Below are positions 16,198 to 17,902 of a stretch of 29,652 nt of DNA, one piece after another; the stretch's first letter is position 1; the number at the start of each line of letters is the position of its first letter. Position numbers and translations under genes: made by a program. A model generated the notes under the pieces. It made no database searches, was not told the origin of the DNA, and was given only the letters and a program-made list of their open reading frames with translations. Source of the DNA: Steroidobacteraceae bacterium (GTDB lineage Bacteria; Pseudomonadota; Gammaproteobacteria; Steroidobacterales; Steroidobacteraceae); NCBI GenBank assembly GCA_035702325.1, contig DASSQU010000189.1:1-29652 (forward strand), written 5' to 3'.

Positions 16198-16671
16198 TCA
16201 GATCTGCGCCGCGAGGCGCTCGAGCAGATCCGCGTGGGCGCGCGCATCGATCTCGCGGCCGAGGAGCTTGGCGGCGGCGCCCACCGCGATGCCGGCCACC
16301 TGGCGGCGGAGAGTCTCGCGCGCGTGCGCGGCGTCGAGCTCGATCTGCTGCTGCGCGGCGGCGATCAGGCGCGCGCCCTCGCTGCTTGCCGTGCCGCGGG
16401 CCTGCTCGAGCAGGTCGTTGGCGCGGTGCTGGGCGTGGTCGATGATCTGCGTGGCCCGCTCGCGCGCCTCGCGCACCACGGCGTCGGCACGCTCGCGCGC
16501 CGCGGCGAGCTCCTGCTCGCCCTTCTCGGCCGCCGCGAGTCCGAGGGCAATCTTGCGTCCCCGTTCCTCGACGGCCGCCATGATGTAAGGCCAGACGAAC
16601 CTCATCGTAAACCAGACGAGCAACGCAAAGACGACCATCTGGATGATGAGTGTCAGGTTGATGTTCACCAT
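16198..16671 (-). CDS. atpF: F0F1 ATP synthase subunit b
   Basis: [28 protein letters not shown] helix followed by an Ala/Glu/Arg coiled coil; SD AGGAG. Confidence 0.97.
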
Positions 16672-16717
16672 CGACTCCTAAAGTAGCGCACGAAGGTCAC
16701 GCATCGCGGCAGAAGCC

Positions 16718-16990
16718 TCAGTGGTGCACTGCCTGGAACGCGGACACGAACGGATTGGCGAACGTGAAAAAGAGAGCGAACGCCACGCCGATGAACGCTA
16801 CCGCGTCGAGCAAACCAGCGACGATGAACATTCTGACCAGTAGGACGGGAGCGAGCTCTGGCTGGCGGGCAACGCCTTCGAGAAAGCGACCACCAAGGAT
16901 TCCGAATCCGACCGCCGTACCGAGCGCGCCCATCCCGAAAATGAGTCCGACGGCAATCACGGTCATGCCATAGATGTGTGCAATTTCCAT
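16718..16990 (-). CDS. atpE: F0F1 ATP synthase subunit c
   Basis: Gly-rich inner helix, ARQPE loop and proton-carrying Asp in GLLDAV; very strong SD GAGGAGGG with an upstream U-rich tract. Confidence 0.98.
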
Positions 16991-17032
16991 TCAGCCCTCC
17001 TCAAGAGAAAAATCGACGCAGTCTGCGGGGCT

Positions 17033-17902
17033 CTATTGATGCTCCGAGGCATGCGCGAGATACACAATGGTCAGCATTCCGAATATGAAGGCCTGCAGCA
17101 GCGCTACAAACAGGTCGAAGCCGGTCCAGATGACTCCGGCGGCGACGGACCCGACGATGCTCAGCCAGCCCCCGAGCGATGCGAGCGCGTGGAATCCGCT
17201 CGAGAGCGTGAGCAATGAAATCAGCACGAATACCATCTCCCCGGCGTACATATTGCCGTAGAGACGTAAGGCGAGCGAGACAGGACGCGCGAGGAACGCC
17301 GGAACTTCCATGATGAGGTTGATCGGCACGAACAGGACCTGCACGAGCCAGTTGCGACTCCTGAACGGATGCAGCGTGAACTCGCCGATGAAGCCCCGGA
17401 TTCCCTTCATCTTCAAGCTGTACGCAATGATAAGAATGAACACGGTGATTGACAGGCCGAAAACGACGTTCAGGTCCGTGCTGGGTACGATGCGCAGATG
17501 CGCCAGCCCCGACACGTACGCTGCGTTGGGCAGCAGATCGAGCGGCAGCACATCCATCGCGTTGAACAGGAACACCCAGCAAAAGATCGTGAGAGCAAGC
17601 GGCGCTATCAGCTTGCTGCTGGCGTGATAGGTGTCCTTTACGAGCGTATCAACGAACTCGACGATTATCTCCACAACCAGCTGGAACTTGCCCGGCGCCG
17701 CCACACTCGCCCGGCGTGCCGCGGCGTAGAAAGCACCCCCGAACGCCACGGCAAGCAGCACGGAAAAGAACACGCTGTCGTAATTGACAACCGAAAAATC
17801 GGCGATCCCCTGCGGCGTCTTGTTCGACAGGAAAGTCAGGTGGTGCAGGATGTATTCGGTCGCCCCGGAGCCGTTCTCGGCCGCTGTCATCAGCGTCAGC
17901 AT
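17033..17902 (-). CDS. atpB: F0F1 ATP synthase subunit a (start 17902 or 17890)
   Basis: YILHHL N-terminus, [14 protein letters not shown] (essential Arg) and LQAFIF. Confidence 0.98.

Follow-up and report, generated by a model that had tools for sequence, protein, structure and literature searches.

The ATP synthase operon of this Steroidobacteraceae bacterium is a mosaic, in which the genes of the Fo membrane module have very probably been replaced in place, recently and by homologous recombination, with counterparts from within the same family. The window (the whole 29,652-nucleotide stretch of DNA that was analyzed) is the longest of the 470 contigs in a metagenome-assembled genome (MAG) of a soil bacterium, which is 2.59 Mb in size, 70.6% GC, and 78% complete. 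The sequences with which it was compared all come from metagenome assemblies, and its named close homologues all belong to the Steroidobacteraceae.

Organization of the mosaic operon

The atp operon is located on the minus strand, downstream of parA and parB, in the order atpI, atpB, atpE, atpF, atpH, atpA, atpG, atpD, and atpC; the operon features given below all lie on that strand. The imported tract (16524–17918; 58.9% GC) comprises the atpI–atpB spacer, atpB, atpE, and codons 1–49 of atpF. Within it, atpB (17033–17902) encodes a subunit a of 289 amino acids (PF00119) that is Asp-type, as defined below, and atpE (16718–16990) encodes a subunit c of 90 amino acids (PF00137 in the relatives). 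The atpF gene (16198–16671), encoding subunit b, is a chimera with codons 1–49 imported and codons 50–157 native. The tract is flanked by native atpI (17919–18353) on one side and by the native stalk and F1 genes atpH, atpA, atpG, atpD, and atpC (11266–16190) on the other. The upstream junction (17917–17918) falls one base past the TGA stop codon of atpI (17921–17919), and the downstream junction (16524–16536) lies inside atpF, at approximately codons 45–49, at a conserved block encoding an 11-residue motif.

The open reading frames of the Fo genes in the window are intact, PF00119 is on record for the protein cluster of its own subunit a, and the same gene order with PF00119, PF00137, and PF00430 is found at the syntenic loci L031, L032, L035, and L079. 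The start of atpB is ambiguous: ATG at 17902 yields 289 residues (the Logan call) and ATG at 17890 yields 285 residues (the NCBI call). In four genomes of the same genus (G002, G014, G019, and G023; 1–3 contigs, modest completeness), atpB is present in several frame-shifted pieces, which look like the product of long-read indel errors rather than pseudogenes.

Base composition and codon usage of the tract

A first-pass annotation of this DNA had singled out a low-GC tract between flanks of 68–78% GC, and we recovered it in 150-nt windows, which contain 53–63% GC across approximately 16550–17900 and 68–78% alongside. The 45–48% that it gave for 60-nt lines applies to some lines of the tract, but their median is 58%. 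Positions 16540–17890 have 58.4% GC (z = −4.4), and of the 13288 windows of 1350 nt that the assembly yields only one is lower. GC3 is 0.70 in atpE and 0.80 in atpB compared with 0.89–0.96 in the nine other genes of the operon. When A/T-ending codons were recounted, atpE contained 27/91 and atpB 58/289, in agreement with the 27 and the approximately one fifth noted earlier, and the rare codons said to occur in the tract (ATA, TTA, CTA, and AGA) are all present. The reversion of the signal within atpF after the N-terminal helix was likewise reproduced, with a GC3 of 0.84 in codons 1–49 and 0.95 in the remainder of the gene.

Part of this deviation is ordinary. In 40 other operons of the family and order, all from outside the group with the variant module, atpB and atpE together average 4.9 GC points below their flanks, compared with 10.6 points in the window, and their GC3 differs from that of the flanks by −0.012 ± 0.032, compared with −0.173 in the window. 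About half of the raw GC dip is therefore due to amino-acid composition and common to all relatives, and about half is a drop in GC3 specific to this genome, so that the earlier claim of a foreign composition stands for GC3 but only for about half of the dip in raw GC. The low GC3 in atpB and atpE, for which relatives were to be checked, is absent from those of the same genus; in the three other carriers of the variant module (L031, L032, and L035) the drop is much weaker than in the window. The A/T-ending codons that the window shares with L035 number 32 in atpB (8.8 expected) and 17 in atpE (6.2 expected), well beyond chance and in keeping with a low GC3 that came in with the DNA.

Sister sequences define the borders of the tract

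Using atpI as a query, we identified sequences with near-identical flanks. One of these (L079; Steroidobacteraceae MAG GCA_035631755.1) aligns to positions 28355–10191 of the window, approximately 18 kb, with an identity of 93.8% upstream, 69.8% in 16524–17935, and 95.9% from the C-terminal part of atpF to atpD (atpI, 94%; atpA, 99%; atpG, 98%; atpD, 98%). The atpB and atpE of L079 are of the type of its own genus, with GC3 values of 0.92 and 0.89, and its atpE is identical to that of L038. The alignment of L079 to the window turns from divergent to identical at 16523/16524, at approximately codon 49 of atpF.

A second sequence (L083; MAG GCA_036518735.1) is identical to the window over 19593–17918, including atpI, with zero mismatches in 1676 nt; past 17918 it is approximately 70% identical to the window and 92–97% identical to L079, and its atpB is of the native type. 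Because a strain with an identical flank keeps the native module, with His at the position where the imported subunit a has Asp, the import into the window is very recent, and because it is very recent, the low GC3 came with the DNA. A further strain, represented by Logan contigs from a public soil run (X6), is approximately 99% identical to the window in both flanks and has almost no depth over the tract, with contigs that depart from the window at 17918 and 16536; its alternative module, the type of which is taken from L083 only, would be native. The comparison with sister genomes that had been proposed thus placed a native-type module between flanks 94–100% identical to those of the window, with breakpoints at 17918 and approximately 16524.

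The upstream border adjoins the last part of atpI, where the sequence forms a conserved block, and the downstream border lies inside the nucleotide block encoding the 11-residue motif of subunit b. Conserved blocks are natural sites of crossover between divergent alleles, which explains the recurrence of the borders: all four carriers (the window, L031, L032, and L035) have the same ones. Gene order is identical across all the loci compared, with the borders in conserved sequence, as in a replacement in place; synteny is kept in all of them, and no integrase or transposase was found at the borders.

Two other stretches of the window also diverge from L079. The gene downstream of atpC (10400–11465) is 68–80% identical to L079, compared with approximately 95% in neighbouring genes, at a normal GC3 of 0.93, and could represent another tract that is divergent or has been exchanged; L079 can be compared with the window here as far as 10191. 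At 21250–21555, the identity is 80–83% amid 92–96%, coinciding with a spacer of 52–57% GC between divergent genes.

Divergence within the genus and other carriers of the module

When the window was compared with 10 genomes of the same GTDB genus, parB, atpI, atpH, atpA/G/D, and most of atpF were at normal genus distances. Subunit a of the window is 55–65% identical to that of its own genus, the members of which are 62–88% (mostly 70–88%) identical among themselves, and subunit c is 69–81% identical, compared with 81–100% among the members (89–100% without the outlier L017). The variant type of subunits a and c is present in three contigs of unrelated assemblies, L031 (a 494-kb contig), L032 (a 50-kb contig), and L035, which have the same synteny and are 79–84% identical to the window in subunit a and 88–97% in subunit c. 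In sliding comparisons of nucleotide identity, the match of the window to these three exceeds its match to standard members of the genus by 15–25 points, and does so only in approximately 17890–16500.

In L064 (G102), of the same GTDB genus, subunit a is Asp-type but represents another lineage, at the base of the Asp clade. Its atpI is approximately 51% and its atpF approximately 63% identical to those of genus members, with atpA at 91%, and the replaced segment in L064 may be larger.

Phylogeny of the module and chimeric subunit b

Trees were calculated with family-level sampling, using five families of the order as outgroups. In the tree of atpB and atpE, the window, L031, L032, and L035 fall in a clade with the genera g18, g27, and g55 and the genome G102 (support 100/99), and the outgroup families are more distant from the module than g18, g27, and g55 of the Steroidobacteraceae; a source outside the family was dropped on account of this nesting. 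In the tree of atpA, atpG, and atpD, the window, L031, and L032 are placed in the core clade of the genus of the window (support 95/99), where L032 is the sister of G004, which carries the standard module. AU tests, the groups for which were named after the trees had been viewed, reject forcing each data set onto the grouping of the other (p = 6e-59 and 2e-7; p = 1e-6 and 3e-51 on a smaller set). The separate phylogenies of atpB/atpE and atpA/atpD that the first-pass annotation had asked for are thus in conflict.

Subunit b contains both signals. Residues 1–49 match g18 (81% identity) better than the genus of the window (67%), whereas past residue 49 the genus is the closer of the two (73%, compared with 61% for g18). 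This switch at residue 49, together with the placement of the F1 genes in their own genus, bears out the proposal that the swap covers subunits a and c and the N-terminal helix of b while the stalk and F1 are native. The mosaic, the trees, and the sister sequences likewise favor the swap by homologous recombination that had been suggested, and the other lineage from which it came lies within the Steroidobacteraceae rather than in a distant group.

The direct donor was not found among the sequences compared. The nearest module DNA is that of L035, which is 85–93% identical, and the closest proteins are P0006 (94%) and P0007 (89%). A scan for donors among JGI metagenome contigs with subunit a retrieved nothing above 71% identity, and among plasmid and phage records none has the tract, the only hits being mis-filed entries with weak similarity to the atpB of enterobacteria and Neisseria. 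A paralogue was rejected as the source of the module, the genome (78% complete) having a single atpB match. L077, a JGI contig of 5013 nt that is basal in the clade of the variant module, was considered as the home lineage of the module and rejected because its locus is mixed: its parB is closest to g18 (82%), its atpF is closest to g55 and g18, and its atpA (92%) and atpH (75%) are closest to the genus of the window. No home lineage was identified in this way, and the parB-to-atpA region of L077 looks like a patchwork of recombination across the family.

Functional residues of the two module types

In the alignment of subunit a, the position of E. coli aHis245 is occupied by Asp in the variant group, g18, g27, g55, and G102 and by His in all other aligned members of the family and in the outgroups; in the window this residue is Asp263 (codon GAC, 17114–17116). 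Two positions neighbouring Asp263 also differ consistently between the module types. Among the best 120 database homologues of the subunit a of the window, 100 have Asp and 19 have His. In the atpB tree, P0020 and its neighbours form a subclade with His at this position within the otherwise Asp-type clade, which suggests a reversal or a further exchange.

The E. coli residue numbering used here (Arg210, Asp61) follows established usage and the source cited below for the half-channel. The essential Arg of subunit a (Arg213, equivalent to Arg210; 17264–17266, within a 12-residue stretch) and the carboxylate of subunit c (Asp62, equivalent to E. coli Asp61; 16805–16807, in LLDAV) are present in the window, as is the Glu219 equivalent identified in the subunit a alignment (17237–17239). 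Between the module types there is no difference in these residues, in the G-x-G-x-G-x-G spacing of the glycine motif of subunit c, or in its LLDAV site, and a change of coupling ion or ring size is therefore not indicated. The possible change in c-ring size raised by the first-pass annotation accordingly found no counterpart in the glycine motif or the carboxylate of subunit c, a check made at the level of sequence. At the start of helix 2 and the adjoining loop of subunit c (16840–16870), the imported protein has LLVRMF and the native genus LRVQMF, with the basic residue shifted by two positions; genus g22 has the imported pattern.

Judged from the alignments, the clearest functional difference between the modules would be the replacement of His by Asp at the aHis245 position. 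The half-channel for proton input includes both aHis245 and aGlu219, and the walls of the funnel leading to it are formed by residues of subunit a and by the N-terminus of subunit b (PMC8754430). Such a funnel fits the exchange of subunits a and c and the helix of b as a unit. Asp263 could affect pH dependence or another property of the enzyme.

Alternative explanations

A tract from another organism could have been joined to the flanks of this one during metagenome assembly, and both the fragmentation of the MAG into 470 contigs and the two continuations behind an identical flank in L083 and the window, a typical fork in an assembly graph, are what such an error would look like. The first-pass annotation had called for sequence support across both junctions, and contigs from individual runs bridge 17918 and 16524: a contig of 2800 nt (X1) spans 15534–18333 without a mismatch, L080 (2296 nt, from another run record) spans 18630–16335 at 100% identity, and contigs of X2 and X3 bridge each junction separately, with similar depth in tract and flanks and, in X1–X3, no loose ends listed at the junctions. 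X1 and X2 may be source samples of the window and are therefore not fully independent of it, but the three unrelated assemblies in which the same mosaic recurs with the same borders, one of them in a 494-kb contig, are independent. We consider a chimeric assembly extremely unlikely. Practically no credence, in our view, is due to an account without transfer, in which the resident genes themselves evolved faster locally, underwent AT-biased mutation, or came under selection for their codon usage or mRNA structure. It drew on a smaller tree, in which the variant clade sat on a long stem (0.41) inside a genus-level group; with family-level sampling the stem falls to 0.16, the clade is placed among other genera with the 100/99 support given above, and the reading of this stem as acceleration was dropped. 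Moreover, the divergence of approximately 30% begins at one nucleotide beside an identical flank, which mutation cannot produce, and since same-genus relatives do without the GC3 dip, it is not something that the host needs.

The mosaic alone gives no direction, and the Asp-type module could be ancestral here, with L079, L083, and the X6 strain as recipients of the His-type module. If that were so, the modules of L079 and L083 would not be expected to lie, as they do, at ordinary distances within their own genus (atpB is 86% identical to L038 and L065, and the atpE match to L038 is exact), nor to have a GC3 matching that of their flanks. The similarity between L083 and L079 is about equal in the flank and in atpB, as vertical descent predicts, and it is the module of the window that clashes with its own genome in codon usage. 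Because the His-type modules match their own flanks in distance and codon usage and that of the window does not, the window is the recipient, and the reverse direction is very improbable.

Discussion

The replacement of the Fo membrane module by homologous recombination, as we reconstruct it, would have proceeded as follows. A 1.4-kb stretch would have been brought into the chromosome by homologous recombination and would have replaced the resident alleles in place, with one crossover at the end of atpI and the other in the conserved block of atpF that encodes the 11-residue motif. Because the second crossover lies inside atpF, subunit b is a hybrid, foreign in its membrane helix and native in its stalk. 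The imported module belongs to the Fo clade of other Steroidobacteraceae genera that is marked by Asp at the aHis245 position, and its low GC3 is on this view donor codon usage that has yet to adapt to the host.

The mechanism is ordinary, in that homologous recombination replacing alleles in place produces a mosaic operon. In-situ xenologous gene displacement, giving rise to mosaic operons, was reportedly described by Omelchenko, Makarova, Wolf, Rogozin, and Koonin in Genome Biology in 2003. The operon described here resembles such cases in that genes within an operon are replaced in place by homologues of different history while gene order is kept. It differs in that the partners of the exchange are genera of a single family and the homologous crossovers fall in conserved blocks, in that the cut passes through a gene (atpF), and in that the replacement is still polymorphic among near-identical strains. 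The general idea of xenologous displacement has been reviewed (PMC2588523). What adds interest to the present case is the exactness of the sub-complex borders, the hybrid subunit b, the recurrence in several lineages, and the difference in the half-channel between near-isogenic strains.

A similar exchange is said to occur in mitis-group streptococci, in which the genes for c, a, and part of b reportedly pass between related species; interspecies recombination in the Fo genes (atpC/atpA/atpB), linked to optochin susceptibility, is attributed to Martin-Galiano et al. in 2003 and Balsalobre et al. in 2006. The unit exchanged there would be the same membrane unit, but in another phylum, with a drug phenotype and with no known His/Asp dimorphism of the half-channel. 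In the literature on Fo module swaps, we found no proteobacterial case and no report of the His/Asp dimorphism. At capsule, O-antigen, and pherotype loci, divergent alleles lie between conserved flanks and are moved by flanking homologous recombination with recurrent borders. The Fo module shares with these cassette loci the deeply divergent alternative alleles, the conserved flanks, and the recurrent borders; unlike those loci, which serve surface or signalling functions under diversifying selection, it belongs to a core bioenergetic complex, and the content of both alleles is orthologous. Whole operons for rotary ATPases are also transferred laterally, as with the N-ATPase and the replacement of F-type by V-type enzymes. 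In both settings ATP synthase genes move horizontally, but those transfers bring an extra operon or a whole enzyme, whereas here a sub-complex was swapped inside the resident operon of a genome with a single atpB match.

Horizontal replacement piece by piece is something that the subunits of a tightly integrated complex should resist. In this operon, the unit exchanged in nature appears to be the whole membrane proton path, cut in subunit b at its exit from the membrane, with a native stalk and F1. Corresponding caution is called for wherever atp genes serve as strictly vertical markers, be it in phylogenies or in methods for taxonomy and binning. A more speculative reading, which we consider possible but doubtful, is that the His-type and Asp-type Fo modules constitute a long-lived dimorphism kept circulating by selection among the Steroidobacteraceae, with the unit of a, c, and the b helix as a mobile allelic cassette. 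This reading implies at least two or three separate swaps in the genus, represented by the window compared with L079 and L083, by L032 compared with its F1 sister L040, and by L031. If it is true, the selective agents could be soil pH acting on the proton-entry half-channel or natural products that target Fo, and repeated recombination would have whittled the borders down to the smallest co-adapted unit. Situated behind an identical flank, the His and Asp alleles form a natural and almost isogenic pair, in which one could study how the entry of protons is tuned by this residue and by the partners co-adapted with it.
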